Source: Minisyncoccota bacterium (GTDB lineage: Bacteria > Patescibacteriota > Minisyncoccia > Phycocordibacterales > UBA9973). From it: a stretch of DNA of 64,000 bases. A model generated the notes under the pieces. That model worked only from the letters and a program-made list of their open reading frames with translations, was not told where the DNA came from and did not search any database. The stretch spans positions 90,732-154,731 of the forward strand of contig JALOQM010000001.1 in assembly GCA_025453495.1 (NCBI GenBank), in the 5' to 3' direction. Position 1 is the first letter of the stretch, and each line of letters begins with the position of its first letter. The translations under genes were made by a program, and so were the position numbers. Positions 26,539-45,491 of the stretch are shown in pieces.

Positions 26539-26901
26539 ATGAAGTATTGTATTTTCTTTTTTTCGATTACACTCTTTTCTTTCTTCTTCGCTGCACATAT
26601 CTCGTTTGCCGCACTCGGGACAATGCGCTCATTCGGCGGAAGAGTGATAAGTACGACGACACCAGGTATTACTTGCGGAGCACAATACGGCATGATGAGT
26701 ATTCAGCCTGTCGGAGTATTTCCAGCAACAGGCTATACCATCACTGCAACCACTCAGTCTGTTAATCCTGGAGGTTGGATTTTGGGACTCTACAACGCGA
26801 CACCCACAACTGGTATTTGTTATACCAACACTGCTCCACCAATCCCTGTGCCTTCATTTAACATACTTAAATTTAGCACCTCAAAACCTTCTCTTTTTTA
26901 A
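26539..26901 (+). CDS. Small secreted protein (120 aa), first gene of the T4SS-like operon
   Basis: Signal peptide MKYCIFFFSITLFSFFFAAHISFA; Gly/Thr-rich mature part with two Cys. Confidence 0.45.
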   Translation: MKYCIFFFSITLFSFFFAAHISFAALGTMRSFGGRVISTTTPGITCGAQYGMMSIQPVGVFPATGYTITATTQSVNPGGWILGLYNATPTTGICYTNTAPPIPVPSFNILKFSTSKPSLF

Positions 26902-26912
26902 TTTTTTAAATT

Positions 26913-27854
26913 ATGAAACAAAGCGTAATTGAGAGATATCGAAAATACTTACCAAGCAAGCGATTTATTAGTATCACCATCTCAGTATTTGGAGTGTTGG
27001 CACTTATTCTTCTTGGGAGAGAATTTTTTAGTGGAAGAAAAAAAATAAGCGGCGATACCGAAAATACTTCTGCTTCTAATGGCACACTGATCTCAATCAG
27101 CGAACTTGCCGAGAACGACCGCGACAAAGATGGCGTCGCAGATTGGGAGGAAGCGCTCTGGGGCACCGATCCTAACAATACTGATAGCGATGGTAATGGA
27201 ATAAGTGACAAAGTTGAGATTGATGGAAAAAAAAATACTCTTACTCTTTCTTCTGCAGAACAATCAACCGAGGCACTTGATGAAACAGAAGCTTTTTCTC
27301 GTGAATTGTTTATTTCAATTAGTGCACTAAAAGAATCAGGTAATCTCAATGAACAATCAATACGCGACCTTGCGGAAACTATCAGCCAAAACGCAGGTGA
27401 AAAAGAATTCATTACGCCAGTCTATACAAAGGACTCAATACAAACAACAAATGAGGCAAAGGTAGCTGTCACAAACTATCATTCTGCCCTGCTTACCGTT
27501 TTGAAGCGCTATGACGAGAGCGGTATTGGCACTGAGCTCTCAAGTATAGAGGCTGCGCTATCTACAGAAGACCAATCTACTATTACAGATATTGAAAATA
27601 TCGCCAAAAAATACCAATCGCTTGCAAAAGACCTTATAGGCATAACAGTACCTTCTGCGATAGTAGACACCCATCTAGAGCTTGCAAACAGTGCATCTGG
27701 TATTAGTGTCTCACTTACAAACACTGCAAAACTGTTTGACAACGCCATGCTCGGTTTGATTGGTATCTCACAATACGAGAAACAAAGCTCTGTATTTGAC
27801 ACTACATTCTCAAAACTACAAGAGTATTTTAAATCGCATGGTATACTCAAATAA
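26913..27854 (+). CDS. N-terminally membrane-anchored protein with Asp-rich calcium-binding-like repeats and a helical C-terminal region
   Basis: TM helix ISITISVFGVLALILLG; DKDGVADWEEALWGTDPNNTDSDGNGISD (thrombospondin-type-3/dockerin-like DxDxDG). Confidence 0.5.
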   Translation: MKQSVIERYRKYLPSKRFISITISVFGVLALILLGREFFSGRKKISGDTENTSASNGTLISISELAENDRDKDGVADWEEALWGTDPNNTDSDGNGISDKVEIDGKKNTLTLSSAEQSTEALDETEAFSRELFISISALKESGNLNEQSIRDLAETISQNAGEKEFITPVYTKDSIQTTNEAKVAVTNYHSALLTVLKRYDESGIGTELSSIEAALSTEDQSTITDIENIAKKYQSLAKDLIGITVPSAIVDTHLELANSASGISVSLTNTAKLFDNAMLGLIGISQYEKQSSVFDTTFSKLQEYFKSHGILK

Positions 27855-30530
27855 ATGAAATCTGCCACTCGACCAACACGGATACTTGCCGGCATGTTGC
27901 TCGGAACGATAGCTTTGCAGTCGGCTTTTCTTGCACCACCCACAAAAAGTGCTGAAGCGCTCGACTTTACTGCCGCATCACAAGGAGTTCTTTCTGCTAG
28001 TGTCAGTTGTGGTGTAAACAATCTATTGCAAAGAAACCTTTCGAGTAAACTAGGTGGCCTTATTGAAGGTGAGGCGCTAAGTGAAGTGAGTGGTGCAGCT
28101 AGTGTACAAGTAGGCGACAGAGAAGTAAGAAGGCAACAAGAAGCTTTAACATTTAAAGAAACATGTCTAAAAAAAATTGCTCGCGCTGCTTCACAGGTTG
28201 TCTTGAGAGAGATAACGAGACAGACGGTCAACTGGATTAATACTGGCTTCAATGGTCAGCCACTTTTTGTAAGAAATCCACAATCATTCTTTAAGAGTCT
28301 TGCTGATAGAGAAGTACAGCGTTTAACGTCGACATTTAGAAATAGAAATAACTATCCGTTTGGACAATCGTTTATCAGAGGCTACGTGCGTGCAACACAA
28401 AGAACATTTGAACAAAATAGCGTTTATAGTCTTCGAAATTCTCTTGGCGGCTATACACCACAGCAATTTTATAGTGATTTCAATCTCGGTGGTTGGGATG
28501 GGTGGCTTGCAATGACACAACAGCCACAGAATAATCCTATTGGCTTCAGTATAGAAGCATCACGAGAACTCAGTCGTCGTCTTGCAGGTACACAACAATC
28601 AGTGGCACAAGACATACGAGATGAGCTACAGCAAGGAATGGGATTTCTCTCACCAAAAGTCTGTGTCGACCCAGTCGGCTATATTCCACCATCTGGGGCA
28701 GTGATCAGTATTACTGAAGTCGAAAATCTCGCATTAAATGATCCTATTAGTCTCATAAATCAAATGGGTATAACACCAGAGCAGGCAGCAGCAGCAATCG
28801 GTGTTAGTGTAGCTGATCTCCAAGATCTCAATGAAGAACAAATTGCAAGTCTTATAGGTGCCGCACAAACAGCTGGCTATGACCAATATGTTGATCAGTG
28901 TCGCCGCTATGAAACTACAACTCCAGGAGGTGTAGTTTCAAGTCAACTGACCAAAGTTCTTAATATACCAACAGACAATCTCTTACTTGCACCAGAAGAT
29001 CTCGACAGCAGTCTACAAGCAGTCTTTGATGCACTACTCAACCAGCTTTTCAAAAAAGGTCTTGCTTCACTTTCTGATCTTTCAAATGGTGACACTGGTG
29101 GAACTGGAGCAAGTAATATCGAAGTATATAGCGGTGGCGGGTATGGTTCAAATGCAAGTGCGACGCAAAATTTCTCGGCAACTACAAATGTGAATGATCA
29201 ATGGTTCAATCAAAACCGGCAGTTTGACATTACTAATATTGCTTCAATCCAAGAAATTATTGATACTCAAAATGAGTATATACAAGCAATCATTGATGAT
29301 CCAGCAATTGAATCCCCACTACCAAACCCAACAATAAATTCAGCGAACTACCCTCTTCCTGCAGTGCTCTATACAAGCGCAAAAGGTCAAAATTACTGGC
29401 TGAATAGAATAATCCCTGAAATCTATCAACTTGACTACTGTATACCTGGACCACACCCAGGCTGGGAAAATGAAGCACAAGCAAACTTCTTTGCTATAAA
29501 ATCTAAAATTACTGATACAAAAAATCTTAACGAAACAGCGCTTGGCAGGATATACGATACATTTACCTTTGGTTTAGGAACATCAGTTATTAATTTTTGG
29601 ACAAATGTAGCTACACCGGGTGACGTAAATGCTGATGATCTTAAACATATAAGATACTATGGCGCGCTTATACAGAATCTCACAGGCATACAGGCAGAAG
29701 CTGACAAATACATTCTCTCATACGAAAAAGTGATAAAAATTCTTGATACGCTCTTTGAGCGGTTCGTTGTACAAATGAATAGACAGTTTGATCCAGTCAA
29801 TCTCCCCTCATCCGCAGGTGAAGCAGCACTCCTTTATGCCAAAATTCCTGGATATACATCAATTCTTCAGAAAAATACCCAAGACATTGTATCGCTTAGG
29901 GGTGTTGTACGTAGACTTGAAGAAATCAAACAAGAAATAACACTCATCAACACAGAACAAGCGACACTTGATTCGCAGACGCTCTCTGGTGCTATAAGTC
30001 AATCACAAGCTGAAATTATACAAAATCAACTTGACAACAGGCTTGATTTTGCAAAGCGCTCATTTGGTAATCAAGCACAAAATTTTGTCACAGATGCTAA
30101 TACCTTAGCAATAAAAGATCAAACACGGCAGTTAATTAGTGACATTGTGTATATACACAACACCTTACTCAAAGGTCCAAGCGGGTGTGAAGCACAAATA
30201 CAGTTTGTACCAGTCGAATCTCGAGTACGTGCATGGCCGTACCAGAATCCTCATTATTATGATTATCCAAAAGGTGGAAGTGGTACTACACTAGTTGATA
30301 TTGGTAGTCTTAAACTAGACCCAATCACTAACAACCTTATCGGTGCTCCACTACGAAGCTATACGACCTATTATCCATTTATGGAATACTCTTATTTCGG
30401 TAATTCAAACTGGAGTGGCTATCGACCAACCTGGAGTCAGATTTATATTACAGATCTCATGAATTTTGACACCGGTGAAGTAGGTAACACTGTCGGTATA
30501 TTTGAAGCACGACTTATGTTTGGAGAATAG
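27855..30530 (+). CDS. Large secreted protein (891 aa) of unknown function, translationally coupled to the upstream gene (TAA-ATG)
   Basis: Signal peptide MKSATRPTRILAGMLLGTIALQSAFLA; no recognisable catalytic motifs. Confidence 0.55.
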   Translation: MKSATRPTRILAGMLLGTIALQSAFLAPPTKSAEALDFTAASQGVLSASVSCGVNNLLQRNLSSKLGGLIEGEALSEVSGAASVQVGDREVRRQQEALTFKETCLKKIARAASQVVLREITRQTVNWINTGFNGQPLFVRNPQSFFKSLADREVQRLTSTFRNRNNYPFGQSFIRGYVRATQRTFEQNSVYSLRNSLGGYTPQQFYSDFNLGGWDGWLAMTQQPQNNPIGFSIEASRELSRRLAGTQQSVAQDIRDELQQGMGFLSPKVCVDPVGYIPPSGAVISITEVENLALNDPISLINQMGITPEQAAAAIGVSVADLQDLNEEQIASLIGAAQTAGYDQYVDQCRRYETTTPGGVVSSQLTKVLNIPTDNLLLAPEDLDSSLQAVFDALLNQLFKKGLASLSDLSNGDTGGTGASNIEVYSGGGYGSNASATQNFSATTNVNDQWFNQNRQFDITNIASIQEIIDTQNEYIQAIIDDPAIESPLPNPTINSANYPLPAVLYTSAKGQNYWLNRIIPEIYQLDYCIPGPHPGWENEAQANFFAIKSKITDTKNLNETALGRIYDTFTFGLGTSVINFWTNVATPGDVNADDLKHIRYYGALIQNLTGIQAEADKYILSYEKVIKILDTLFERFVVQMNRQFDPVNLPSSAGEAALLYAKIPGYTSILQKNTQDIVSLRGVVRRLEEIKQEITLINTEQATLDSQTLSGAISQSQAEIIQNQLDNRLDFAKRSFGNQAQNFVTDANTLAIKDQTRQLISDIVYIHNTLLKGPSGCEAQIQFVPVESRVRAWPYQNPHYYDYPKGGSGTTLVDIGSLKLDPITNNLIGAPLRSYTTYYPFMEYSYFGNSNWSGYRPTWSQIYITDLMNFDTGEVGNTVGIFEARLMFGE

Positions 30531-30596: not shown

Positions 30597-33500
30597 ATGA
30601 ATCGTTTAAAACGAAAAATAAAATCTGGCTTTAAACACTTTGTGCTCACGCTAGTGCTTCTTGGCGTGACTTTTGCATCACTATTCTCTAGTCCGCTACA
30701 AGTACACGCAGCAGACAGTATGCAAGAGGTATTTCCAGCTACCTCTTCCAGTGATTCAGGAGTAGGCGATATTCTACCAATTGGTACTGTACCCTATAGC
30801 GGCAGGGATGGTGATGAATATATCATTAATGAAAATAATCTGAGTTTGACTCTTGAAGGTACACCAACTTCTCAGACAGTCACATTCAAAATGAATCTCC
30901 GCCTTGGTGGTGATTCTATACAGGGTATAAATCCAGGTAGAAATGGCAATAACACTCTTTACGACGAGGAAGAAGACCTTGGTAGTTGGCAATCAATTTA
31001 CGACACCAACAGTGATGGTAGTTGGCCACCTACTAGCGATAGTGGCAGAGGAATATGGCTTGATATTGGCACAAGTGTAGCTCCTGGACAAGCAAGTGTA
31101 GGATTTGGCTCACCTCCAATTGCACCTGTTATAAACGATCTTGTGCAAGAGTATGACCTCGCGACTCTCATTAACTTCAGGTACACATCGCAAGAAATTA
31201 ATATCACTGTAGGCACAGCAGCTGGACTTACCCCAAATACACAATACTACGCTCGCATTCGTGTTGAAGAATCAGATTCAACAGACAATGCCTACAGTAA
31301 GATTGTCGGATTCAAAACAGGTGCTGCTGGTGATACCGGAGAACAAAGCGAGGAAATCACAGCAAGCCTGACGCAATCTGAAATAAACAATGAAGGACAA
31401 CTTATTGATCTTCTTGACTGCGGTATAAGCACTATATTTACTGATTGTTTGGTTATAGGTTTCTATTACCTTTTTTATGTCCCATCATCATGGATTCTCC
31501 GTGCTGCTGGTTGGTTGCTTGACGCATTCGTTACATTTTCAATCAGTACCAAAGTATATAGTGATCCAAGTTTTATAACAGAAGGATGGAAGATCGTCCG
31601 TGATATAGCAAACATATTTTTCATTTTTGTCCTTGTATATATTGCATTTAAGCTAATACTTGGCGTTAGTGGCTCTGATGTGAAACGTATGCTGACCACT
31701 ATTATCATAGTCGGTGTCCTTATAAACTTCAGTCTATTTTTTACCAAAGTCGTTATCGACTCATCAAATATACTGGCACGCATTTTTTATCAACAGATCC
31801 AAATCACTGGTACTGAAGGTAGGGCAATCACAGATGCCTCAAAACTAGGTGTGGAAGAAAAAAGTCTCTCACAAGCTATTGTCAGTGGTGTAAGTGTAAA
31901 CAAAATGCTCTCTGATGAGACTATTACAAAACTACGTACTATGAATTGGCATAGTACTAGTTCAACATTTTTGATTATTATACTTGGCTTAATTGTCAAT
32001 CTCGTTACTGCTTGGACATTATTTATGAGTGCACTGTTTTTTATAGGGAGGATTGTCGCCTTGTGGGTAGCTATGATATTTTCAGCATTCGCCTTTATGT
32101 CAAACATTGCACCTGATTGGTTTAAACAAATTCCTATGATTAATTGGAGTAGTTGGTTCTCTGACCTTTTAAAGGTTTCCTTTTTAGCGCCGATCTTTCT
32201 GTTCTTTATTTATTTGATTATTGCATTTGTGAATAGCAAATTTCTCGATGGGTTACTGCTTAAAGCAAACGATTTTGATTTTACACAACTCCTCGTCTCT
32301 ATTATGCTCCAGTTTGGAATTTTAATTGTCCTTATACAAAAAGCAAAAGATATTGCTGAAAAACTTGCAGGAGACACAGCTGGTGCCGCTGTAAGTGCTA
32401 TAAAAAAAGGAGCTTCCGCTGTTGGTTCAGTAGTTGCTGGAGCAGGACTTGCTGTAGCAACTGCTGGAGCAGGATTTGCACTTCGTGGCACACTTGGCAG
32501 ATATGCCGCAGATCAGATGAATTCTGAAGAATACAAAAAGAAAATGGCCGAACGCATAGAAAAAGGTGGTGTTCGTGGTTGGCTTGCACAACGAGAACTC
32601 AAATCATATGAAAGTTTCAGTAATGCAAGTTTTGATGCTCGTGGATCAAAAAGATTTCAGAGTGCTCTCACTAGGTTTGGTGGTGCAACTGGTATAAATA
32701 TAAACACTGGAACTGGACACGAGGGAGGACATCTAAGTGATAAAGAAAAGAAAGAAAAAGAGCATCTTGCTATGGTAGAGCTCCTGCGATCAAAGAAAAG
32801 CGATGAGGAGTGGATGGAGTCACTCAGCGAGGATGATCCAGAAAAGAAAAAGTACATGGATGCAAAAAAGAAATACGAGACTGAGAAAGCTGTGTTTGAT
32901 GAGTATGAAAACAAATACAGAGAAGCATACGAGGCTGCAAAAAACTTGCCTGGCTTTAATCTTGACAAATTTAGAATTGACTATGAAAAAGCAAATGGAA
33001 AAGCACCAGATGCGCCAAAGGAAGTCAAAGCATCAGACTATGTTGATGTTTCAAAAATAAACAAAGAGCGCGAACTTAAATATGCAAGATACCTTAGAGA
33101 GAATACATTGCGCGCAAAGATAGAGCGTGCAACAGGTGATGGAGATCTGCTTGGCACGGAGCGTAGCGCACAATTGTCAGCAGCCAAAAAGATCGAAAGA
33201 GAAGCAGCAATGACTGAGAAATCATCAGTAAGTATGTCGAAACTTGCTCGCGCCGCAGAACAAGCAGAATACGATATTGGTCGCCTCAATAGAGAAATTG
33301 AAGCACATCAAACTAAATACTCTGGTACGCCTGAAGAAGTAAAACAAAAAATTACTCTTGAGATAAATACGGCAAAGAATGAACTGAAAGATATTGATCT
33401 AAATGCTGAAATGATGAAACAAAAATATGAAAGTGTAAAAAAGAAAGGTGGAAATACTGCGAGACAAGCTTATATTGCATGGCAAGCTGCTGAAGACAAG

Positions 33501-33632
33501 AGAAAAGAGAAACAAGAAGAAATCGCGGCTCTTGGTAGGGTAACAGAAGATCAGAAAAAACGTATAAGCGAACTTGAAAAGAAAGAAGGAGATCTTGAAA
33601 AGCTCCGAGAAAAGATAGACAAACTTAACTAG
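30597..33632 (+). CDS. VirB6/TrbL-like polytopic inner-membrane protein (1011 aa) with an N-terminal secreted domain and a K/E-rich coiled-coil C-terminal tail of about 450 aa
   Basis: Signal peptide; about 270-aa exodomain; at least 7 TM helices (e.g. IFFIFVLVYIAFKLILGV, TIIIVGVLINFSLFF, FLAPIFLFFIYLIIAF); Gly-zipper AGAGLAVATAGAGFA; C-terminal heptad-like KKKYE/EKKEGDLEK repeats. Confidence 0.55.
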   Translation: MNRLKRKIKSGFKHFVLTLVLLGVTFASLFSSPLQVHAADSMQEVFPATSSSDSGVGDILPIGTVPYSGRDGDEYIINENNLSLTLEGTPTSQTVTFKMNLRLGGDSIQGINPGRNGNNTLYDEEEDLGSWQSIYDTNSDGSWPPTSDSGRGIWLDIGTSVAPGQASVGFGSPPIAPVINDLVQEYDLATLINFRYTSQEINITVGTAAGLTPNTQYYARIRVEESDSTDNAYSKIVGFKTGAAGDTGEQSEEITASLTQSEINNEGQLIDLLDCGISTIFTDCLVIGFYYLFYVPSSWILRAAGWLLDAFVTFSISTKVYSDPSFITEGWKIVRDIANIFFIFVLVYIAFKLILGVSGSDVKRMLTTIIIVGVLINFSLFFTKVVIDSSNILARIFYQQIQITGTEGRAITDASKLGVEEKSLSQAIVSGVSVNKMLSDETITKLRTMNWHSTSSTFLIIILGLIVNLVTAWTLFMSALFFIGRIVALWVAMIFSAFAFMSNIAPDWFKQIPMINWSSWFSDLLKVSFLAPIFLFFIYLIIAFVNSKFLDGLLLKANDFDFTQLLVSIMLQFGILIVLIQKAKDIAEKLAGDTAGAAVSAIKKGASAVGSVVAGAGLAVATAGAGFALRGTLGRYAADQMNSEEYKKKMAERIEKGGVRGWLAQRELKSYESFSNASFDARGSKRFQSALTRFGGATGININTGTGHEGGHLSDKEKKEKEHLAMVELLRSKKSDEEWMESLSEDDPEKKKYMDAKKKYETEKAVFDEYENKYREAYEAAKNLPGFNLDKFRIDYEKANGKAPDAPKEVKASDYVDVSKINKERELKYARYLRENTLRAKIERATGDGDLLGTERSAQLSAAKKIEREAAMTEKSSVSMSKLARAAEQAEYDIGRLNREIEAHQTKYSGTPEEVKQKITLEINTAKNELKDIDLNAEMMKQKYESVKKKGGNTARQAYIAWQAAEDKRKEKQEEIAALGRVTEDQKKRISELEKKEGDLEKLREKIDKLN

Positions 33633-33649: not shown

Positions 33650-34339
33650 ATGATAGATTTTACTGAACAACAAATGGAAGAAAAATTCAATGCGGTCCCG
33701 CGCTCGGTGCGCGCGTTGATCTTTGATCCTATAGTTGGAGAAAAAACACAAAGTATCGGCAAGAAGTATGGATTACTGCTTGATGCATCAAGTGACTTGC
33801 TTGCAATTGTGCAATTTGCTCTTTTTGGATTCATTACTCAAGAAGATATCAAAAAAGAAATTATCGAAGCACTCAAAGTAAGTAATACTGTAGCATCTGC
33901 CATTACTGTAGATATAAAAAACGAAATAGTAGCGCCTATTTTTGAAAAAATGCGCAAGCAACAAGAAGAAACTACTACAGAAAAAATAACTGACGAAGAA
34001 ATTGCACTCCTTCTTACTGAACCTGAAGATGACAGTAGTGGTTTTGCGCAAGCTGGTATTGAAATACAATCAGAGAAACCTTTCATTGGCGACGAGGAAA
34101 AGGAAGCCTTTGAGGAGCATAAGGTATTGCTCAAGCAAATAGAACGTACTACCTCGCCAATACAAACGTCAAACGAGATACAGCGAGGTATTACAGGTGA
34201 AAAATTTTCTGGTAATTTCAAAATTCCTCATGAAGAGCGAGATTATTCGATAAATAAGCAGTCTGACGCAGATACAGTTTCACTCAAAGTAATAAGGCAT
34301 CGTGACCGTGTCGATCCATACCGAGAACCTCTTGAATAA
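33650..34339 (+). CDS. Acidic cytoplasmic hypothetical protein (229 aa)
   Basis: Intact ORF in operon; hairpin aaaatgcccgtagtttgcgggcatttt immediately downstream. Confidence 0.45.
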   Translation: MIDFTEQQMEEKFNAVPRSVRALIFDPIVGEKTQSIGKKYGLLLDASSDLLAIVQFALFGFITQEDIKKEIIEALKVSNTVASAITVDIKNEIVAPIFEKMRKQQEETTTEKITDEEIALLLTEPEDDSSGFAQAGIEIQSEKPFIGDEEKEAFEEHKVLLKQIERTTSPIQTSNEIQRGITGEKFSGNFKIPHEERDYSINKQSDADTVSLKVIRHRDRVDPYREPLE

Positions 34340-34404
34340 CAAAATGCCCGTAGTTTGCGGGCATTTTGCTTTGCCGGCAGTGGAAGATACCATATAATGA
34401 ATAT

Positions 34405-34842
34405 ATGCGATTTGAAGTGCCGCAATTCATTGACGTCGAAGACAAGATTTTCGGCCCATTCACTTTTAAGCAATTTTTATATCTTGCCGGAGGAGCGGGT
34501 ATCATCTATGTCCTTTGGAAACTTCTCCCAGCGATCATCGCCATACCACTCATACTTCCTGTCGCTGGACTCGCACTTGCTCTGACATTTTACAAAGTAA
34601 ATGGTCGACCATTCGCACAAACTATTGAGTCTTGGATGAAATACATCACTCAGGACAAACTCTATCTTTGGAAAAAAAGAGAGCGCAGAAAGACGCCAGA
34701 AAAAACACCAATGCCTGAGACAGAACAAGTACCAATTCAAGCACCACGTCTTTCTGGGAGTAAACTCAAAGACATCGCATGGAGTCTTGATGTTCTTGAT
34801 ATGCAAGAGAACGCAAAGCTCGATAAACTCGACACAAGATAA
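34405..34842 (+). CDS. PrgI-family-like small membrane protein of Gram-positive-type T4SS (functional VirB3 analogue)
   Basis: MRFEVPQFIDVEDKIFGPFTFKQFLYLAGGAGIIYV then a second TM helix; classic PrgI-family N-terminus and two-TM topology directly upstream of VirB4; start moved to ATG 34405 because the upstream in-frame Met lies inside the preceding hairpin. Confidence 0.6.
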   Translation: MRFEVPQFIDVEDKIFGPFTFKQFLYLAGGAGIIYVLWKLLPAIIAIPLILPVAGLALALTFYKVNGRPFAQTIESWMKYITQDKLYLWKKRERRKTPEKTPMPETEQVPIQAPRLSGSKLKDIAWSLDVLDMQENAKLDKLDTR

Positions 34843-34849
34843 CTAACAT

Positions 34850-35488
34850 ATGGCTATCAACGCAAAAGCATCACAAGAATTTGTACCTGTTAAAGAAGTG
34901 CGCGACGGTATCGTCGTCTTAAAAGATGGCAGCCTTCGTGCTATTTTGCTTGCTTCATCAATCAATTTGTCACTCAAGTCATATGAAGAACAACAGGCAG
35001 TTCTTTTACAATTTCAGAACTTTCTCAATTCAATAGATTTCTCAATGCAGATCGTCGTCCAATCTCGCCGACGTGACATGCGTCCATATCTTACACTACT
35101 TGAAAACAGAATGCGTGAACAAACTGAACCACTCTTGAAAGTGCAGACGCGCGAGTATATTGAATTCATCAAAAGCTTCACGGAGTCAGTGAGTATTATG
35201 ACAAAAAACTTTTTTATCATCGTTCCGTATTCATCAGTATCATTGCCTTCAGCTGAGGGTGTTATAAAAAAACTATTTGGTGGCACAAATAAAAAAACAG
35301 TAGCTCAAGAAGAATTAGCAAGCTTTGAAGAAAAACGTACACAACTTGAGCAAAGAGTTGGCACTATCACACAGGGACTTTCCCGTATGGGTGTCAGAAC
35401 AGCACAGCTTGGTACTGAGGAGGTTATAGAACTTTTCTATAAGATATTTAATCCGGGAGAAATAACTGCAAGTATTAAATCACAATAA
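34850..35488 (+). CDS. virB4: VirB4/ConE/PrgJ N-terminal domain encoded as a separate ORF (first part of a split VirB4)
   Basis: EFVPVKEVRDGIVVLKDGSLRAILLASSINLSLKSYEEQQAVLLQF matches the conserved Gram-positive VirB4 N-terminus; TAA stop 1 nt before the ATG of the ATPase ORF. Confidence 0.6.
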   Translation: MAINAKASQEFVPVKEVRDGIVVLKDGSLRAILLASSINLSLKSYEEQQAVLLQFQNFLNSIDFSMQIVVQSRRRDMRPYLTLLENRMREQTEPLLKVQTREYIEFIKSFTESVSIMTKNFFIIVPYSSVSLPSAEGVIKKLFGGTNKKTVAQEELASFEEKRTQLEQRVGTITQGLSRMGVRTAQLGTEEVIELFYKIFNPGEITASIKSQ

Positions 35489-35489
35489 T

Positions 35490-37538
35490 ATGGGCTTTTT
35501 TGATACATTGTTTGGGAATAAGTCAAAAGTAAAAGAAGCGGAAAAAACGCCAGTGCTTTCTGTCTTACCTGAACAAATCTATGAATCAGCAACCCTCGAA
35601 TTCCAAGACATCATCGCACCATCTGCTCTTAAAATAGAGTCGAAATCTCTAAATCTTGGCGAGAAAATAACACGCACGTTTTTTGTTATTTCCTATCCAA
35701 GATTCCTGACCGATAATTGGTTCTCACCGATAATAAACCTCGACAAGATTTTTGATGTATCAATCTTTATTCATCCTATAGATTCACAGAAATTGCTTCG
35801 CGATTTCCAGAAAAAAGTCGCAGAAGTTCAAAGTCAGATCAACACCAGAGAAGCAAAAGGACTTGTCAGAGATCCAATGCTTGATACTGCTTACCGTGAT
35901 CTTGAGGCGCTTAGAGACAATCTCCAACAGGCGCAAGAACGGGTCTTTGAGGTTGGACTGTATATCACAGTATATGCTGACAATGAAAATGAGCTTTTCA
36001 AAGTTGAAAATGAGATAAAAACTATCCTTGAATCACGCCTTATTTATCTAAAACCAGCACTCTTTCAGCAAGAAGAAGGATTTAAGAGTGTTTTACCGAT
36101 CGGTAATGATCTTCTCTCAGTACACCAAAAACTCAATACTGAGCCGCTTTCGTCTATTTTTCCATTTGTGTCCTTCGACCTCACAAGTGACAATGGGATC
36201 CTTTATGGCGTAAATCGACACAATGCGTCACTTGTTATCTTTGATCGTTTCTCCCTTGAAAACTATAATTCAATTATCTTTGCAAAGTCCGGAGCTGGAA
36301 AGTCGTATGCGACGAAGCTTGAGATTATCCGTACACTTATGTTTGATACTGACGTGATCGTTATCGACCCAGAACGTGAGTATGAGTATCTTGCTGAAGC
36401 AGTCGGTGGACGCTATTTCAATATAGCGCTTTCTTCTGATCACCACATCAACCCATTTGATCTACCAATTCCACGTGAAGATGAAACGACAGCTGACGTG
36501 CTTCGCTCAAACACAATCAATCTTGTCGGCTTGTTTCGTATCATGCTCGGCGGACTAACACCAGAAGAGGACGCGCTCATAGACAGAGCGATTACAGAAA
36601 CATATGCAATAAAAGATATTACTGCTGATTCAGATCTCAGTGACATAGAACCACCACTGTTGTCTGATTTTGAGCTTGTTCTTGCTGGTATGGAAGGAAG
36701 CGAAAAAGTACTCCAACGTCTGACAAAATATACTAAAGGATCTTGGTCAACCTTTATAAACCGCCCATCAAACGTCGACATCAACAAGAAATTTGTCGTC
36801 TTCTCTGTGCGCGACATGGAAGATGAGTTGAAGCCTGTCGCTATGTATATTGTCACGCACTTCATCTGGAACGAAGTGCGTAAATCAATAAAAAAGCGCC
36901 TACTTGTCGTCGACGAAGCATGGTGGATGATGAAATCAGAAGACACCGCTTCATTTCTCTACTCAATCGCAAAAAGAGGGCGTAAATACTATCTTGGCCT
37001 CTGTACTATCACCCAAGACGTTGGAGACTTCATGAGAAGTCCCTATGGTGTGCCTATTGTAACAAACTCTTCATTGCAGCTTCTCCTTAAACAATCACCG
37101 TCATCGATTGATCTTCTACAGAAGACATTTAATCTCACCGATGAAGAAAAATATCTTCTTCTTGAATCTGCCGTTGGTGAGGGCATCTTCTTTGCAGGAC
37201 TCAAGCATGTTGCCATAAAGATCATTGCCTCATACACCGAAGATCAAATTATTACCTCAGATCCATCACAAGTACTTGCTATAAAACGCGCTAAGGAAGA
37301 ATTTGAAGCATCTGAAACGCAAAGAGAACAAGCTATTGTTTCAGAGACAGAAATAGTAAGAGCGCAACCATTTGAAACAACAATAGCACCTAAAACAATA
37401 CCTGAGACAGAAGAAACAATAGACGCAGCTGAAATGACACCTGTCCGACAAAAAACAAAGGAAGAGTCACAACTTGATGAGCTTGCCATCCTTGATGAAG
37501 ACCTCAAAGAAATCGAAGAGGATATTGTCGGAAAATAA
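35490..37538 (+). CDS. virB4: VirB4/TrsE/CagE-family T4SS ATPase (central and ATPase domains)
   Basis: Walker A IIFAKSGAGKSYATK; HINPFD motif; Walker B LLVVDEAWWMM; RKYYLGLCTITQDVGDF motif. Confidence 0.85.
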   Translation: MGFFDTLFGNKSKVKEAEKTPVLSVLPEQIYESATLEFQDIIAPSALKIESKSLNLGEKITRTFFVISYPRFLTDNWFSPIINLDKIFDVSIFIHPIDSQKLLRDFQKKVAEVQSQINTREAKGLVRDPMLDTAYRDLEALRDNLQQAQERVFEVGLYITVYADNENELFKVENEIKTILESRLIYLKPALFQQEEGFKSVLPIGNDLLSVHQKLNTEPLSSIFPFVSFDLTSDNGILYGVNRHNASLVIFDRFSLENYNSIIFAKSGAGKSYATKLEIIRTLMFDTDVIVIDPEREYEYLAEAVGGRYFNIALSSDHHINPFDLPIPREDETTADVLRSNTINLVGLFRIMLGGLTPEEDALIDRAITETYAIKDITADSDLSDIEPPLLSDFELVLAGMEGSEKVLQRLTKYTKGSWSTFINRPSNVDINKKFVVFSVRDMEDELKPVAMYIVTHFIWNEVRKSIKKRLLVVDEAWWMMKSEDTASFLYSIAKRGRKYYLGLCTITQDVGDFMRSPYGVPIVTNSSLQLLLKQSPSSIDLLQKTFNLTDEEKYLLLESAVGEGIFFAGLKHVAIKIIASYTEDQIITSDPSQVLAIKRAKEEFEASETQREQAIVSETEIVRAQPFETTIAPKTIPETEETIDAAEMTPVRQKTKEESQLDELAILDEDLKEIEEDIVGK

Positions 37539-38022: not shown

Positions 38023-39033
38023 ATGCATCGTATCGGCAAAATCATACTCCTTGGCACACTCTTGATGGGCGTACTTTTGTTTTCCCCAGTTACTATAGAT
38101 GCACAATTTACTGGAAATACTGACATCACAGTAAATGTTAGTCCTACTATTCCAGGTCCAAATGAAGAAGTAGTGGTGACTCTCACTAGTCTTTCAGTAA
38201 ATCTTGATACAATTACTATTAGGTGGGAAATAAATGGAAAAACAGAACTTAGTGGTGTTGGAGAGAAAACGTTGACATTCAAAACTGGTGGAGTCGGATC
38301 AACAACGACAATTGAAGCTTCAATTGATGTTCCAGGTGTGCCGACCATAACCAAGCGTATAGTTATCCAACCACTAGCAATCGACCTGCTTTGGGAAGCA
38401 ACTGACTCGTATACACCTCCGTTTTACAAAGGAAAAGCACTGCTTCCGTCTGAAGGAGTAGTAAAGGTAGTTGCCATACCTGAGATTAAAACAACTAGCG
38501 GAAAGATGCTAAAACCATCTGATTTTACTTATACATGGAATCGCAATCAAAGGGAACAAGCCATTAACTCAGGAAATGGAAGAAATTATTTTTCTTTCCA
38601 GCAGAATTACCTGACAAATGAAGAAGTTATAACAGTAACAGCAAAATCAGTTTCTGGTAACTATCAAGCAACAAAGAAAGTAACAATTACACCTCGTGCC
38701 TCAAAAGTGTTATTCTATGAATTTGATCCAGCGCTTGGAGTCAGATATGAACGCATGCTTCAAGATATTACTGGTGTACAGGTAAATAAAGAAGGACTAA
38801 TTATTACCGCTGAGCCGTATTATTTTTCAGCAAATACTGCTGATACAGCACAGCTTTCATTTGAATGGAATGTGAACAATGAGGAAATTACGTCGCCAAC
38901 AAAAAAACATATGTTACCAGTACAAGTAACCACAAACGGCGTAGCAGAAATTCGAGTTAAGACAGAAGCTAGGATGAAATTATTCCAGGAGGCAACACGG
39001 TCGCTGTTCGTTAATCTTGAAGCAAATGAGTAA
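38023..39033 (+). CDS. Secreted beta-rich (Ig-like repeat) protein, 336 aa
   Basis: Signal/anchor MHRIGKIILLGTLLMGVLLFSPVTIDA; repeated VTxTxK beta-strand patterns. Confidence 0.5.
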   Translation: MHRIGKIILLGTLLMGVLLFSPVTIDAQFTGNTDITVNVSPTIPGPNEEVVVTLTSLSVNLDTITIRWEINGKTELSGVGEKTLTFKTGGVGSTTTIEASIDVPGVPTITKRIVIQPLAIDLLWEATDSYTPPFYKGKALLPSEGVVKVVAIPEIKTTSGKMLKPSDFTYTWNRNQREQAINSGNGRNYFSFQQNYLTNEEVITVTAKSVSGNYQATKKVTITPRASKVLFYEFDPALGVRYERMLQDITGVQVNKEGLIITAEPYYFSANTADTAQLSFEWNVNNEEITSPTKKHMLPVQVTTNGVAEIRVKTEARMKLFQEATRSLFVNLEANE

Positions 39034-40135
39034 TATATTTTTAGTAATTCGTATTCTAGCAATTAGCAGCTCTTTATTAAGTGTGCTTCTTTTCCAAACC
39101 GTAGATTTGGTTTTTGCTCAGGTGCCAACAAGTGACACTACTTCAATTGTAAAAGAAATTTGTGACAACAATATTGACGATAATGGCGATAATCTTGCAG
39201 ACGGAAAAGATCCTCAGTGTTATTTTCTTCTTGCTCCTCTCCCTGGTCTTTCAACAATCAATACAACACAAGGGCTTCCTGCATATCTAAAGGTATTATA
39301 TCGACTAGCAATTGGTATTGCTGGTGTTATCGCAGTAGTTATCATCGTATGGGCAGGTATAGAATATATGATGAGTGATGTTGTGTTTAAAAAAGATGAT
39401 GCAAAGCAACGAATTTGGAACGCACTCGGTGGTCTTGTCTTGCTTATCGGATCATTTGTATTACTCAATACAATCAACCCTGATCTTCTTAATCTAAATC
39501 CTCGGGTGCCCATTAAGGAAATCAATATTGAAGAGGAAGTAGGTGGCGATACTGGTGATGTATTTATCGCAAATTATACTTCTCCGTCAGGAATCTTCTA
39601 TCCACGAAGTGGTGGAGCATCACAAATAAGTCGCATTGTCAGCAGTCTTGATGGAAAAGTTACCTACCGCTTTGGCGGTAAAGGCGGCCCAGCACCGTAT
39701 CCAAGTGATACAAAGATGTGCGAAAATGGTCCGTGCAAAAATTACTGCCCACCGGGAACTGTTTGTCTTGATTGCTCTGGATTTATAAATTATATATATG
39801 TTGGTGCAGGTATTGCACCTATTAATGGCGGGACAGGAACGATATTTTCGTCATCTGAAAAAATTACAAAGATAGAAAACAGAATTATTAACGGAGAAAC
39901 TGCTACGTACGTCAACGATATAGCTCTTAAAACAGGGGATCTTTTAGGATGGGTGGCAAACGAAAATGGAAATAAGGTCGGACATGTTGTTATGTATATT
40001 GGTAATGGTCAAGCAGTAGAATCTACCTCAGGTGGGAATGGGAGAAGCTCTGGTAATGGGTTAAAAAAATTAGAGGTAACACAAAAGTATCTTCGAAAAG
40101 AAGTCCAGCTTTTGACAAGAGTTAAAAGACTATAA
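39017..40135 (+). CDS. Fusion of a pilin-like (VirB2/TrbC-like) two-helix hydrophobic hairpin with a C-terminal NlpC/P60 (C40) cell-wall peptidase
   Basis: Long signal peptide; hydrophobic hairpin LAIGIAGVIAVVIIVWAGIEY ... ALGGLVLLIGSFVLL; NlpC/P60 catalytic motifs CLDCSGFINYIY (Cys) and GDLLGW...GHVVMYIGNGQAVES (His); Asp-rich CDNNIDDNGDNLADGKD loop. Confidence 0.7.
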   Translation: MKQMSNIFLVIRILAISSSLLSVLLFQTVDLVFAQVPTSDTTSIVKEICDNNIDDNGDNLADGKDPQCYFLLAPLPGLSTINTTQGLPAYLKVLYRLAIGIAGVIAVVIIVWAGIEYMMSDVVFKKDDAKQRIWNALGGLVLLIGSFVLLNTINPDLLNLNPRVPIKEINIEEEVGGDTGDVFIANYTSPSGIFYPRSGGASQISRIVSSLDGKVTYRFGGKGGPAPYPSDTKMCENGPCKNYCPPGTVCLDCSGFINYIYVGAGIAPINGGTGTIFSSSEKITKIENRIINGETATYVNDIALKTGDLLGWVANENGNKVGHVVMYIGNGQAVESTSGGNGRSSGNGLKKLEVTQKYLRKEVQLLTRVKRL

Positions 40136-41719: not shown

Positions 41720-42226
41720 CTATTGTGAAGTATAAGAAATTATAATTCTTCTTTGCTCACCTTCTCCTACAGATTCAGTCTTGATATATTCTCTTTCTGA
41801 TAAAAATTCATGAACAATACGCCGCTCAAAAGAGTTCATCGGGTCAGTTGAGATAGTTGAAGCAAAAAACTTTGCTCGTTCAGCGAGCATGTGTGCCACG
41901 CTTTGTATTTCTTCGATTCTTTTTTGCTGATACCCGTCAATATCAATAATCAGATTTTCTTCTAGTGCCTTATCTTTTCTCATATACTGAACCTGCTTTT
42001 TGTTGATGATCTTTTTTACTAGGTGATTAATACAGGCAAGTACTTCTCCATGCTTGCCGATTAAAGAACGAGGATCAGACACAGTAACACAATAGAGCAA
42101 CGTATGCTCTTTGAGACTATGGGGCACGGGCACTACCTCAACACTAGTAGTAGGAAAAGATAGTTTTTCAAAGAAATCACTGATAGTGCTTCGTATTTCC
42201 TTCTGTGCATCCATGTAACTACTCAA
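41720..42226 (-). CDS. jag: Jag/KhpB RNA-binding protein (KH plus R3H domains)
   Basis: R3H motif ERRIVHEFLSER; conserved position downstream of yidC. Confidence 0.8.
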   Translation of the reverse strand: MSSYMDAQKEIRSTISDFFEKLSFPTTSVEVVPVPHSLKEHTLLYCVTVSDPRSLIGKHGEVLACINHLVKKIINKKQVQYMRKDKALEENLIIDIDGYQQKRIEEIQSVAHMLAERAKFFASTISTDPMNSFERRIVHEFLSEREYIKTESVGEGEQRRIIISYTSQ

Positions 42227-43001
42227 TAACTTTTGCTTGTACAGACACAGTGTTTCCTTCTGTCTTTTTTGCTAACCTGCGACGTATTATGATTTCTTGA
42301 AAAATAGTGAAAATATTACTTGTTGCCCAATAAAGTGCTACTGCTCCAGCAACTTGATATGAAATAATTCCGACGAAAATAGGAAGTACATACTGCATTT
42401 GCATTTGCATACTTTTAGCAAACTGTTTTTGAAAAGATCCGTCATTCGTTTGTTGCTTTTGTTTGGGAAGTGTTAATCTAGCCTGTATAAACTGGGTGAC
42501 AGCTGCCAAAATAGCAAGAACAATACTTTTCCCACTCATATCAAGAAATCCTAGAAATTGTGTATTTATAACAGGCGGAAAGGAGACACCCTGATACAAA
42601 AGACCAGCATCCAAAGAAAGTGCTCCAAGAAAAACCTTATAGAGAGCAAAAATGACAGGAAGTTGGAGAAGTACTAGTAGGCATCCTGAAAACGGATTAA
42701 CTTTATATTGTTTATATAATTCAAACGTTCTTCTAGATTGCTCAAGCTTATCAGTATATTTTTCTTTTATTGCATCAATCTCTGGCTGCAGGTTGCGAAG
42801 ATGTATTTGGCTTTCAATCGATTTTTTAGCTATAGGATACAAGATAAAACGAACGAGTATTGTTAAAAGAATAACAGCAACACCAATATCTCCTCCAGGG
42901 ATTAAAGATACCAAAAAAGCAAGAGCGTTGTAGAGCGGTTCGTAAAAAATATTATTCCAAAGAGTAGTAATCATTTGCCTATTGTATCGAAAAAAGAGCA
43001 A
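42219..43001 (-). CDS. yidC: Membrane protein insertase YidC (short monoderm type)
   Basis: 5-TM YidC/Oxa1 core, conserved synteny with yidD-rnpA-rpmH. Confidence 0.85.
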   Translation of the reverse strand: MLFFRYNRQMITTLWNNIFYEPLYNALAFLVSLIPGGDIGVAVILLTILVRFILYPIAKKSIESQIHLRNLQPEIDAIKEKYTDKLEQSRRTFELYKQYKVNPFSGCLLVLLQLPVIFALYKVFLGALSLDAGLLYQGVSFPPVINTQFLGFLDMSGKSIVLAILAAVTQFIQARLTLPKQKQQTNDGSFQKQFAKSMQMQMQYVLPIFVGIISYQVAGAVALYWATSNIFTIFQEIIIRRRLAKKTEGNTVSVQAKVIE

Positions 43002-43015
43002 AAATCAATCCCATT

Positions 43016-43237
43016 CTATACTGGGTCAATGTGGTTTTTTTGCCATGGATGACATCGTGAAATCCTGCGGACTGCACGCAGTGTTCCTGAAATCCATCCA
43101 TATTTCTTAATTGCGTCAATTGCATACATTGAACAGGTCGGGTAAAAGACACAGTTGTCTTTTAGGATGCCAAGTTTTTTTAAAACACCAACACTATATT
43201 GATACATTCGTATACACCCGATAAGTAAATACTTCAT
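43016..43237 (-). CDS. yidD: Membrane protein insertion efficiency factor YidD
   Basis: YQ...CRF/YPTCSMYA Cys motif of the YidD family. Confidence 0.85.
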   Translation of the reverse strand: MKYLLIGCIRMYQYSVGVLKKLGILKDNCVFYPTCSMYAIDAIKKYGWISGTLRAVRRISRCHPWQKNHIDPV

Positions 43238-43239
43238 TT

Positions 43240-43587
43240 TTATTTTCTCAATTCTATAAGAGTATCTCTTAATTCATGTACTAAAAGATCATAACTTATT
43301 TTATGAGATCCTTTTTTAAAAAACAAAATACAGAACATGGGTTTTTTTGGCCATAACAGAGAAAGCTCTCGGAGGGCACTATATACTCTACGACGAAGAG
43401 TATTTCTAGAAACTGCTTTTTTTGCGATGGTTTTTGGGACAACAACAGCAAATGCAGTTTGTCTAGTTATTTTTTGTTCAGGTATTACAACACAAGAAAA
43501 AGCGAAAAAACGCTTGTGCAGCAAGCGGGTATTTCTCGTATTTCGGGGAAACTCAGAGCTCCGTATTCTGTTTTTTGACGGGAGCAT
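43240..43587 (-). CDS. rnpA: Ribonuclease P protein component
   Basis: Basic RNR-like motif SRNTLRRRVYSALRE; synteny. Confidence 0.8.
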   Translation of the reverse strand: MLPSKNRIRSSEFPRNTRNTRLLHKRFFAFSCVVIPEQKITRQTAFAVVVPKTIAKKAVSRNTLRRRVYSALRELSLLWPKKPMFCILFFKKGSHKISYDLLVHELRDTLIELRK

Positions 43588-43598
43588 GAATAAAAAGC

Positions 43599-43733
43599 TT
43601 ATACAGAAAGCTTCTTGCGGCCTTTTTGTCTTCGCGCTTTAAGTACTTTTTTGCCGTTTTTTGTTTTTGTTCTGACGAGAAAACCGTGTGTAGTCTTTCT
43701 TTTTCGCTTCGAGGGATTGTATGTTTGCGACAT
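43599..43733 (-). CDS. rpmH: 50S ribosomal protein L34 (44 aa); not in the ORF track
   Basis: Manual translation of the minus strand: [44 protein letters not shown], matching the L34 consensus. Confidence 0.85.
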
Positions 43734-43789
43734 GTGGGTAGTCTAGCGTATTATTAAGAATAAGGCAATTAGCTTTTTTACTACTCTCA

Positions 43790-43855
43790 GATTTTAGTTA
43801 TACACATATTATCAACAAAGTAATCCAGTGATTGTATTTTTTTATCAATCAACAC
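43790..43855. promoter_or_regulatory. DnaA-box-like cluster in the rpmH-dnaA intergenic region (candidate oriC part 1 / dnaA promoter)
   Basis: ttatacaca (43798-43806), ttatcaaca (43809-43817), ttatcaatc (43842-43850); each within 1-2 mismatches of TTATCCACA. Confidence 0.5.
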
Positions 43856-43897
43856 CCATACTATAATGATTCCCAATAGCCACTGGCTAAAAAACCT

Positions 43898-45253: not shown

Positions 45254-45491
45254 TAGCAGTGTGTATAGACTGTTAAAAAAATAAACAATATATGTGAATT
45301 AAGAAGAGTAATTATGTAAAACAAACCATCTATTCAAACACAGCACACAACACAGTATTGTTTTTACACACATATGTATATCAATCTATATTAAAATGTT
45401 CAGTAATAACAACACTATTAGTATCTATCCACATATCCACAGGTCTTTATAGTAGTAGTATGTATTTAATTAATAAATAATATAAAAATAT
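45254..45491. promoter_or_regulatory. AT-rich dnaA-dnaN intergenic region with tandem DnaA boxes (candidate oriC / DNA-unwinding element)
   Basis: Two adjacent TATCCACA 8-mers at 45426-45433 and 45435-45442; very AT-rich flanks (aattaataaataatataaaaatatatg). Confidence 0.55.

Follow-up and report, generated by a model that had tools for sequence, protein, structure and literature searches.

The T4SS closest to the one described here are those of Patescibacteria/CPR surveyed by Quinonero-Coronel et al. 2025 (PMC12102498), in which 480 VirB6 homologues were counted against 2,272 TrsD homologues. As presented there, these systems are chromosomal and origin-proximal, have neither a relaxase nor a T4CP in the vicinity, and are encoded in the order VirB6, one gene, PrgI, TrsD, VirB4; the virB6 gene of Ca. 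Southlakia epibionticum ML1 is reported to be essential (Wang et al. 2023, cited in PMC12102498). R388 TrwI (7O3V, 8RT9) and Agrobacterium VirB6 (Pfam TrbL, PF04610) are hydrophobic multi-helix proteins encoded beside VirB3/VirB4; TrwI is 342 aa long and is part of a diderm machinery that also includes VirB5, VirB10 and an outer-membrane core complex (OMCC). Monoderm T4SS are represented by the Tn916 Orf15 / CD3337-EF1877 family (MPF_FA VirB6; relatives ICEBs1 ConG and pCW3 TcpH), MPF_FA VirB6 proteins being 700-900 aa in length (PMC12857230). Extended VirB6 proteins are defined by a VirB6 core with at least one large hydrophilic domain and a total length well above 400 aa (PMC12857230). In those of Rickettsiales (Rickettsia RvhB6a-e, 674-1154 aa, PMC2653234; Anaplasma VirB6-4, 4322 aa, PMC7648143) and in Legionella DotA, a VirB6/TrbL-type core of ~400 aa lies between large hydrophilic extensions (PMC2653234; PMC7648143), and these systems serve host interaction rather than conjugation.

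A 1011-aa protein encoded in the 64-kb window (the whole stretch of DNA analyzed) of a Patescibacteria (Paceibacteria) bacterium is, with the evidence taken whole, very probably the VirB6-class subunit of a chromosomal, monoderm-type (MPF_FATA-related) T4SS (Table 1). The reading frame proposed in the first-pass annotation is backed by a full-length match at 100% identity to NCBI MCU0660116.1 / MUD00_00675, a hypothetical protein from a metagenome-assembled Candidatus Pacebacteria genome. From N- to C-terminus the product consists of a signal-peptide-like segment, an acidic fn3-like exodomain, a hydrophobic helical core and a basic, K/E-rich helical tail. Great length and three-part composition are the sole points in favor of an artifact, with two or three genes run together by a frameshift or an assembly error in the genome recovered from the metagenome, and the probability of this is negligible: the best six homologues align across 88-100% of the length, AlphaFold models the parts as a single chain, and the three-part architecture recurs in hundreds of independent assemblies, the family-wide occurrence on which the artifact was rejected.

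Table 1. Features of the VirB6-like gene and of the T4SS genes downstream of it. Positions are those of the window.
Feature	Position	Strand	Basis or remark
Extended VirB6-like gene, 1011 aa + stop codon	30597..33632	+	ORF list; exact match MCU0660116.1
Signal-peptide-like N-terminus (MNRLKRKIK..., hydrophobic stretch, VHA-AD), aa 1-38	30597..30710	+	Hydropathy
Acidic hypervariable exodomain, predicted fn3/Ig-like beta-sandwich, aa 39-274	30711..31418	+	AlphaFold strands, Pfam, Foldseek
C-x8-C, sole two cysteines of the protein, aa 275-284	31419..31448	+	Immediately precedes first core helix
Conserved hydrophobic all-helical VirB6-like core, aa 275-604	31419..32408	+	
Gly/Ala-rich "Gly-zipper" (AGAGLAVATAGAGFA), aa 605-630	32409..32486	+	Sequence
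Proximal tail, semi-conserved family-wide (motif ...FDxR...G...GG...), aa 631-725	32487..32771	+	Alignment, family consensus
Distal K/E-rich helical tail, lineage-specific, aa 726-1011	32772..33629	+	
PrgI/VirB3-like gene	34366..34842	+	Pfam PrgI 2.2e-11; 42/42 loci
TrsD homologue, resembling VirB4 N-terminus	34850..35488	+	NCBIfam TrsD 1.1e-8, VirB4_plasma 1.3e-11; 42/42 loci
VirB4 ATPase, CD1110 family	35490..37538	+	NCBIfam 1.2e-113; Pfam TraG P-loop; 42/42 loci
VirB2-like pilin module fused to NlpC/P60 hydrolase	39017..40135	+	Pfam T4SS_pilin 4.9e-5, NLPC_P60 3.6e-8; 37/42 loci

The gene order p313, p891, VirB6-like gene, (p229), PrgI, TrsD, VirB4, p336 was found in all 42 loci with full flanks, with the VirB6-like polytopic protein encoded two genes upstream of PrgI and the T4SS genes PrgI, TrsD and VirB4 downstream of it, as in the order given for the surveyed systems. 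An interpretation of the adjacent TrsD and VirB4 genes as a split VirB4 was rejected, the former being a separate TrsD component that PMC12102498 gives as typical of such systems. The pilin-P60 fusion is likely the partner of VirB6 and likely also supplies the VirB1 function. The T4SS cluster lies ~2 kb from yidC/dnaA/dnaN, and neither a T4CP nor a relaxase was found in the window; this origin-proximal position and gene content agree with the systems tabulated in PMC12102498. As published for the clade, this T4SS, with neither of these genes close by, is probably used for the epibiotic lifestyle and not for conjugation.

The homologue search returned 260 matches, all from Patescibacteria, and the profile search recovered 20,976 representatives of 50%-identity clusters at E<=1e-3, a number that falls to 6,952 at E<=1e-30. 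The protein family is very large and Patescibacteria-specific and has a conserved helical core of ~370 aa (the Gly-zipper end included); its ~21,000 50%-identity clusters compare with the 480 VirB6 homologues counted in PMC12102498. Family members range from 450 to 1200 aa among these clusters, and from 452 to 1201 aa, with a median of 872 aa, among 246 homologues. N- and C-terminal extensions both recur family-wide and are hypervariable in sequence. With an N-domain of 236 aa and a tail of 371-429 aa around the core, the 1011-aa protein has the makeup of an extended VirB6. The available portions of PMC12102498 contain no description of an architecture combining signal peptide, fn3 domain, core, Gly-zipper and basic tail. 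An earlier description of the architecture as unusual and lacking a characterized counterpart was not supported, since the size is typical of the family and proteins of the extended VirB6 type are already well known; the VirB6 call is correct but largely ordinary.

Homology to VirB6 runs through intermediates. ETB64080.1, a family member identified by exact look-up (locus L039), is 36% identical to the 1011-aa protein over the core (E 7e-66); Table S3 of PMC12102498 gives it as a VirB6 (T_virB6 HMM, 73% coverage, near virB4), followed by the genes for VirB3, TrsD and VirB4. In the same table KKP57663.1, which has an identical gene arrangement, matches both T_virB6 and Pfam TrbL PF04610. The 1011-aa protein belongs to the same family as the VirB6 homologues tabulated there; together with the predicted fold and the PrgI-TrsD-VirB4 synteny, the published classification of ETB64080.1 backs the label "VirB6-like" given in the first-pass annotation.

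Neither the 1011-aa protein nor its isolated core matched TrbL in Pfam, even at E<=10, in a scan in which TrwI (4.9e-50), PrgH (1e-6) and Orf15 (2.8e-3) did so. Unlike the surveyed VirB6 homologues, the protein therefore escapes the HMMs of such screens; the missing match is a test of the detection method and not of homology itself. In NCBIfam it was matched by no VirB6/TrbL model, nor by the CD3337/EF1877 (Tn916 Orf15/ConG) family at E<=1. Pfam and NCBIfam scans of the whole protein, core, N-domain and tail gave weak fn3/Ig matches only, and nine homologues scanned singly against Pfam gave no match. Against PDB sequences, the protein and the two profiles gave nothing beyond coiled-coil or GPCR noise, and a tblastn comparison of the core with plasmids gave no match. 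By hhalign, the 246-sequence core alignment matched the Tn916 Orf15 family weakly (Prob 50%, P 1.7e-4; low-diversity template alignment), the match being confined to the TrbL-matching hairpin region of Orf15. Against the TrwI family the result was non-significant and colinear over 229 columns (Prob 0.8%, P 0.066; low-diversity template alignment); nothing was obtained against PrgH, and single PrgH and TrwI sequences likewise gave nothing usable. Precomputed PF19590 annotation was present on the Orf15 family and on 5 among the 120 homologue matches listed, the 1011-aa protein being without it. In the Pfam scan PF19590 matched none of the nine homologues, nor even Tn916 Orf15 itself, so the model may be absent from the Pfam copy scanned.

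In Foldseek the first-ranked match was 8rt9_F (TrwI/VirB6; probability 0.98, TM-score normalized to target [TMt] 0.43), and the best natural matches of two independent models among 48,164 chains were the two solved VirB6-class proteins, the predicted core fold thus being closest to TrwI (7O3V/8RT9) and DotA (9NGY). The lack of a direct HMM match to TrbL/VirB6 and hhalign probabilities of at most 50% would suit a non-homologous, Patescibacteria-specific polytopic protein, such as a transporter or a membrane anchor of the secreted neighbors p891/p313, which happens to be encoded among T4SS genes and whose likeness to VirB6 is that of any helical bundle. Such a protein is very improbable in view of the fold ranking, of the 36%-identical homologue and the locus-equivalent protein that match the curated T_virB6 HMM and Pfam TrbL, and of the place adjoining VirB3/VirB4, which is canonical for VirB6 (cf. 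the analogous gene order prgH-prgI-prgJ of pCF10); in addition, no transporter family was matched by HMM in Pfam or NCBIfam.

As a VirB6-class protein, the 1011-aa product resembles TrwI in its hydrophobic helices and gene neighborhood, but TrwI is without an N-terminal exodomain or long tail, identity between the two is 12-13% with no HMM-level similarity, and the VirB5, VirB10 and OMCC of the R388 system are all absent here. Tn916 Orf15 likewise belongs to a monoderm T4SS and has an N-terminal hydrophobic/signal segment, a hydrophobic core and a basic hydrophilic C-tail of ~290 aa, in addition to the weak hairpin match and the PF19590 annotation present in both families given above; it differs in having no fn3 exodomain, in its tail (disordered and S/T/Q/K/R-rich versus helical and K/E-rich here), and in coming from conjugative elements with relaxase and coupling protein. 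The Rickettsiales and Legionella proteins are alike in their arrangement of core and extensions and probably in a role other than conjugation, but belong to diderm intracellular pathogens, carry extensions unrelated in sequence and occur as multiple paralogues per genome, versus a single copy at the present locus.

The signal peptide proposed earlier is borne out as a signal-peptide-like N-terminus, with a K/R-rich n-region, a Kyte-Doolittle (KD) peak of 1.95 at aa 16-34 and VHA-AD at aa 36-40; similar N-termini occur in 188 of 246 homologues, and Pro33 is conserved in at least 90% of the family. The domain that follows is hydrophilic and acidic (10 K+R versus 35 D+E), its length being ~236 aa and not ~270 aa. 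It is beta-rich in the AlphaFold prediction, matches FnIII domains in Foldseek (probability 0.9-0.98) and gives weak Pfam matches (Pur_ac_phosph_N, 2e-4; Ig_Rha78A_N). It contains an fn3 signature, LTPNTQYYARIRV, at aa ~210-222, and the motif LxPxTxY is part of the family consensus. The exodomain sequence is kept in only 2 of 42 related loci (tblastn).

The core is highly conserved, with invariant polar residues R335, D336, N339, N377, S379, D388, N391, R485 and W520. Seven KD-hydrophobic segments (>=1.5) were found between aa 275 and 582, and six long core helices (pLDDT 85-96) are predicted by AlphaFold, aa 454-494 forming a single 41-residue helix versus two TMs by hydropathy; at least five hydrophobic helices are thus present on either count. 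The earlier figure of at least seven TM helices stands for hydrophobic segments; as a TM count it reflects hydropathy alone, and AlphaFold merges two of them. Loop-by-loop positive-inside statistics of the core are ambiguous as to topology, and therefore no TM count is adopted. C275 and C284 are conserved in 99% and 98% of the 246 homologues and may form a disulfide on the outer face. At the end of the core, the Gly-zipper string AGAGLAVATAGAGFA is located at aa 614-628, in agreement with the first reading; G611, G615 and G634 are each at least 90% conserved, and the segment is modeled at pLDDT <50.

The proximal tail has an occupancy of 0.6-0.9 and an identity of 10-25% in the family alignment. 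The C-terminal region is K/E-rich as described (K 14.6%, E 14.0%), helical by AlphaFold prediction, and contains both strings quoted for it, KKKYE and EKKEGDLEKLREKIDKL. Its length is 371 aa counted from the Gly-zipper or 429 aa from the last strongly hydrophobic segment, and not 450 aa. Heptad (3.5-residue) periodicity exceeds that of shuffles only at ~aa 865-1011 (33189-33629; z 2-5) and is absent from aa 640-860, so the heptad-like character is confined to the last ~150 aa, and only there does the idea of a coiled-coil ruler find support. The supposed repeats are not true ones: Tandem Repeats Finder found no real repeats in the tail, its sole array (15-bp x 3.3) lying inside the Gly-zipper DNA.

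Of the 246 homologues, 95% have an N-domain of net negative charge and 98% a tail of net positive charge, with family-wide K+R contents of 8% and 17.8%, respectively. A secreted N-domain and a cytoplasmic tail would agree with this asymmetry. Taken with the signal-peptide-like N-terminus and the conservation of both cysteines, it suggests that the hypervariable fn3-like N-domain would be displayed outside the cell and the basic helical tail would be cytoplasmic, where docking of ATPases or substrates is a possible role, in line with proposals for other extended VirB6 proteins. The opposite placement, a VirB6-like core with an extracytoplasmic tail that crosses the cell wall or reaches towards the host cell as a stalk or ruler in a monoderm without OMCC, is unlikely, although several observations point to it. 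R388 TrwI has only alpha1 and alpha2 in the membrane, the remaining hydrophobic protein being periplasmic (PMC11294453; PMC12857230); the single helix at aa 454-494 gives an even number of long helices, so the C-terminus would be outside; the last ~150 aa have heptad periodicity; and the tail is cysteine-free in all 246 homologues. Against these stands the positive charge of the tails, which is the positive-inside pattern of a cytoplasmic segment. In addition, the tail sequence is kept in 0 of 42 related loci (tblastn) and its length in the family varies from 22 to 527 aa, neither of which fits a ruler of fixed length. For Agrobacterium VirB6, too, the C-terminus is said to be cytoplasmic, a placement attributed to Jakubowski's work of 2004. 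A cytoplasmic tail is the preferred reading.

By analogy with R388 TrwI, Legionella DotA and pCF10 PrgH, the core would assemble as a pentamer into a central platform or protochannel that occupies the membrane and the space above it and lies over the VirB3/VirB4 ATPase complex. The platform would recruit the VirB2-like pilin, here the P60-hydrolase fusion, and gate substrate passage. It is distinctly unlikely that adaptation is confined to the two hypervariable extensions while the rest of the machine stays fixed, the N-domain forming a five-ring at the channel exit that touches the host bacterium or envelope and the tail docking substrate or ATPase in place of a coupling protein; the sole pointer to this is the extreme divergence of both extensions beside a core reaching 70% identity. 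If true, VirB6 would help to determine the host range of epibiotic Patescibacteria.

A large share of bacterial diversity belongs to the Patescibacteria. No T4SS other than their origin-proximal one has been reported as essential for the growth of its owner, with VirB6 detected in only about one fifth of such loci by standard HMM screens. In the loci sampled, which are mostly of the Paceibacteria type, the polytopic product of the second gene upstream of PrgI is very probably VirB6 even where HMMs fail, and this subunit always carries an fn3-like domain, presumably external, and a basic tail. The outcome is a more complete inventory of components on which structural and genetic studies of the Patescibacteria T4SS can draw, rather than a new kind of machine.

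The VirB6-like reading frame was confirmed as a real ORF in the ORF list, and its product matches MCU0660116.1 (MUD00_00675) at 100% identity from end to end; that entry is annotated as a "hypothetical protein" and comes from a 251-kb contig of a Candidatus Pacebacteria MAG. Its identification as a VirB6 subunit, in line with the "VirB6-like" label of the first-pass annotation, is supported by a fold match, by conserved synteny and by the class to which a close homologue has been assigned in print. A full-length AlphaFold2 model built on a 120-sequence alignment (mean pLDDT 75) was searched against the PDB with Foldseek, where rank 1 was 8rt9_F (TrwI/VirB6, probability 0.98) and 8rtd_L was rank 4; a separate core-only model had a pTM of 0.69. 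No direct match to the protein was obtained with the TrbL/VirB6 models of Pfam and NCBIfam or among PDB sequences. Profile-profile comparison of the core with VirB6 families was suggestive only: core positions 193-263 aligned with residues 317-382 of the Tn916 Orf15 family (Prob 50%, P 1.7e-4), the stretch in which Orf15 itself is hit by Pfam TrbL (E 2.8e-3), and alignment to the TrwI family was colinear over 229 columns and non-significant (P 0.066). Precomputed PF19590 was present on the Orf15 family and on 5 among the 120 homologues listed. The link taken as decisive is transitive and runs through ETB64080.1 (GCA_000505065.1|531), which matches the window protein at 36% identity across the core (E 7e-66) and was assigned by exact-sequence look-up as the family member in L039, one of the related loci. 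In Table S3 of Quinonero-Coronel et al. 2025 (PMC12102498), ETB64080.1 is entered as VirB6, detected via the T_virB6 HMM at 73% coverage and flagged near virB4, with genes 533, 534 and 535 of the same genome entered as VirB3/PrgI, TrsD and VirB4; the same table gives T_virB6 and Pfam PF04610 matches for KKP57663.1, from Patescibacteria with an equal gene arrangement.

Relatives were collected in two ways. A word-indexed search gave 260 proteins of 640-1180 aa, all Patescibacteria; a profile search run exhaustively from core alignment A2 gave, among representatives of 50%-identity clusters, 20,976 with E<=1e-3, of which 6,952 reached E<=1e-30. Lengths, conservation and charge were calculated over 246 homologues. 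The length comparison proposed earlier placed the window protein within the range of a family that shares its three-part plan, so that its size is the family norm; a gene-fusion artefact was excluded on the same family-wide basis. Invariant core residues include R335, D336, N339, N377, S379, D388, N391, R485 and W520. By tblastn, the N-domain was found in 2 of the 42 related loci and the tail in 0/42; in the proximal tail, aa ~676-725 show partial conservation across the family alignment.

Features of the window protein, its family and the surrounding genes (window genes from KsgA to dnaN in gene order)
Feature	Position	Length (aa)	Characteristics
Whole protein	30597..33632 (+)	1011; family median 872 (452-1201)	three-part plan identical throughout 246 homologues
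N-terminus	aa 1-38		basic, then hydrophobic; ends VHA|AD (hydropathy)
Hydrophilic stretch	after N-terminus to ~aa 274		hydropathy
N-domain	aa 39-274	family median ~195 (13-370)	sequence without conservation
Core	aa 275-604	~374 in family, near-constant	column identity up to 67-73% at aa 326-350 and 376-400
Hydrophobic segments	~aa 275-297, 331-356, 364-386, 456-478, 481-503, 520-545, 562-582		Kyte-Doolittle (KD) score >= 1.5
Gly-zipper	aa 614-628		AGAGLAVATAGAGFA; sequence/hydropathy analysis
Tail		family median ~305 (22-527)	distal part without conservation
KsgA
p120	26539-26901 (+)	120	small, secreted; signal peptide, two Cys; upstream cluster edge; recognisable in 5/42 related loci
p313	26913-27854 (+)	313	TM protein with TSP3-like acidic repeats
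p891	27855-30530 (+)	891	secreted; no family match found
VirB6-like gene	30597..33632 (+)	1011
p229	33650-34339 (+)	229	acidic, soluble
PrgI/VirB3	downstream of p229		Pfam 2e-11
TrsD	34850-35488 (+)	212	resembles VirB4 N-terminus; NCBIfam TrsD 1e-8, VirB4_plasma 1e-11
VirB4	35490-37538 (+)		CD1110 family, 1e-113
p141	between VirB4 and p336	141	coiled coil
p336	38023-39033 (+)	336	secreted; weak Ig-like matches; follows VirB4 immediately in all 42 related loci
Pilin-NlpC/P60	39017-40135 (+)	372	VirB2-like pilin module (Pfam T4SS_pilin, aa 94-145; two TM helices linked by short charged loop KKDDAKQR) and C-terminal NlpC/P60 hydrolase
Peptidoglycan-binding protein
jag/KhpB-like (R3H) and yidC, then dnaA, dnaN	41720-46589		jag and yidC on minus strand
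ComEC competence channel and T2SSE/PilB-type ATPase	5050-6549 (-) and 53711-55408 (-)

In the AlphaFold2 model the core is all-helical (pLDDT 85-96), the Gly-zipper falls below pLDDT 50, and the tail is helical and confident at aa ~740-830 and ~910-1000. The suggested fold search of the exodomain was run: the N-domain was modelled as a beta-sandwich with long low-confidence loops, resembling FnIII domains of insulin receptor, IFNAR2-D2 and DUF3823 (Foldseek probability 0.9-0.98), with weak Pfam matches to fn3/Ig-type domains and the fn3 signature LxPxTxY retained in the family consensus. The peptide strings quoted in the first-pass annotation are present, and its 450-aa tail was an overstatement: 371 aa lie C-terminal to the Gly-zipper, and counting from the end of the last strongly hydrophobic segment gives 429 aa (tail K 14.6%, E 14.0%). 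Heptad periodicity, claimed for the whole tail, exceeded shuffled controls only in ~aa 865-1011 (z 2-5) and was absent in aa 640-860; Tandem Repeats Finder returned zero repeats in the tail, the sole array in the gene (15-bp x 3.3) lying within the Gly-zipper.

Net charge is negative for the N-domain in 95% of homologues and positive for the tail in 98% (K+R 8% vs 17.8%), and the protein contains exactly two cysteines, C275 and C284, each at least 98% conserved. This charge asymmetry, the signal peptide-like N-terminus and the Cys pair argue for a predicted N-out/C-in topology. The seven TM helices described earlier are recovered by hydropathy, and the AlphaFold model fuses two of them into one 41-residue helix. 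Because of this merged helix, the ambiguous loop charges of the core, the membrane placement of only alpha1 and alpha2 in TrwI (PMC11294453) and the same discrepancy noted for Orf15 (PMC12857230), how often the chain crosses the membrane is uncertain; an extracellular tail therefore stays a minority rival, rather improbable beside the N-out/C-in arrangement.

Extended VirB6 proteins form a recognised subclass (PMC12857230), including Rickettsia RvhB6a-e (674-1154 aa; PMC2653234), Anaplasma VirB6-4 (4322 aa; PMC7648143) and MPF_FA VirB6 (700-900 aa; PMC12857230), and Tn916 Orf15 has a similar general plan with a basic tail of ~290 aa. "VirB6-like" is therefore apt, and the view that the architecture has no characterised counterpart is not supported.

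Synteny was assessed in 80 GTDB loci, Patescibacteria only, 42 with full flanks, where the order p313, p891, VirB6-like, PrgI, TrsD, VirB4, p336 was kept in 41-42/42. The proteins p313 and p891, directly upstream of the VirB6-like gene in 41/42, are probably unannotated Patescibacteria-specific T4SS components. The slot of p229 is filled in other loci (e.g. 307 aa in L039), its sequence being recognisable in just 7/42; a partnership with the basic VirB6 tail is speculation. A frameshifted VirB4 comprising the TrsD and VirB4 ORFs was rejected, the first being the separate TrsD described in PMC12102498 as typical of Patescibacteria T4SS. The predicted pilin/VirB1-type fusion is kept downstream of VirB4 in 37/42. 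Neither relaxase nor T4CP was found within the 64-kb window. The window also encodes a ComEC channel and a T2SSE/PilB-type ATPase, components of further cell-envelope machinery of known importance to epibiotic Patescibacteria.

From the position of yidC, dnaA and dnaN, the cluster lies <= ~2 kb from the presumed replication origin, a placement already known from the phylum. The locus is the origin-proximal, MPF_FATA-related T4SS published for the phylum and is probably non-conjugative; virB6, prgI and trsD of this type are reported essential in Ca. Southlakia epibionticum (PMC12102498). Two points are modestly new: the family is far bigger than the 480 VirB6 homologues reported from HMM screens, most of its members, the window protein included, evading the VirB6 HMMs of such screens; and its consistent plan (signal peptide, fn3 domain, Cys pair, core, Gly-zipper, basic tail) is apparently undescribed for these proteins in the literature consulted. 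By analogy with R388, Dot/Icm and pCF10, a core pentamer would form the central platform/protochannel above VirB3/VirB4, recruit VirB2-like pilin and gate substrate passage, with the invariant polar residues buried in hydrophobic helices as candidate sites of contact between subunits or with pilin, or of a gate.
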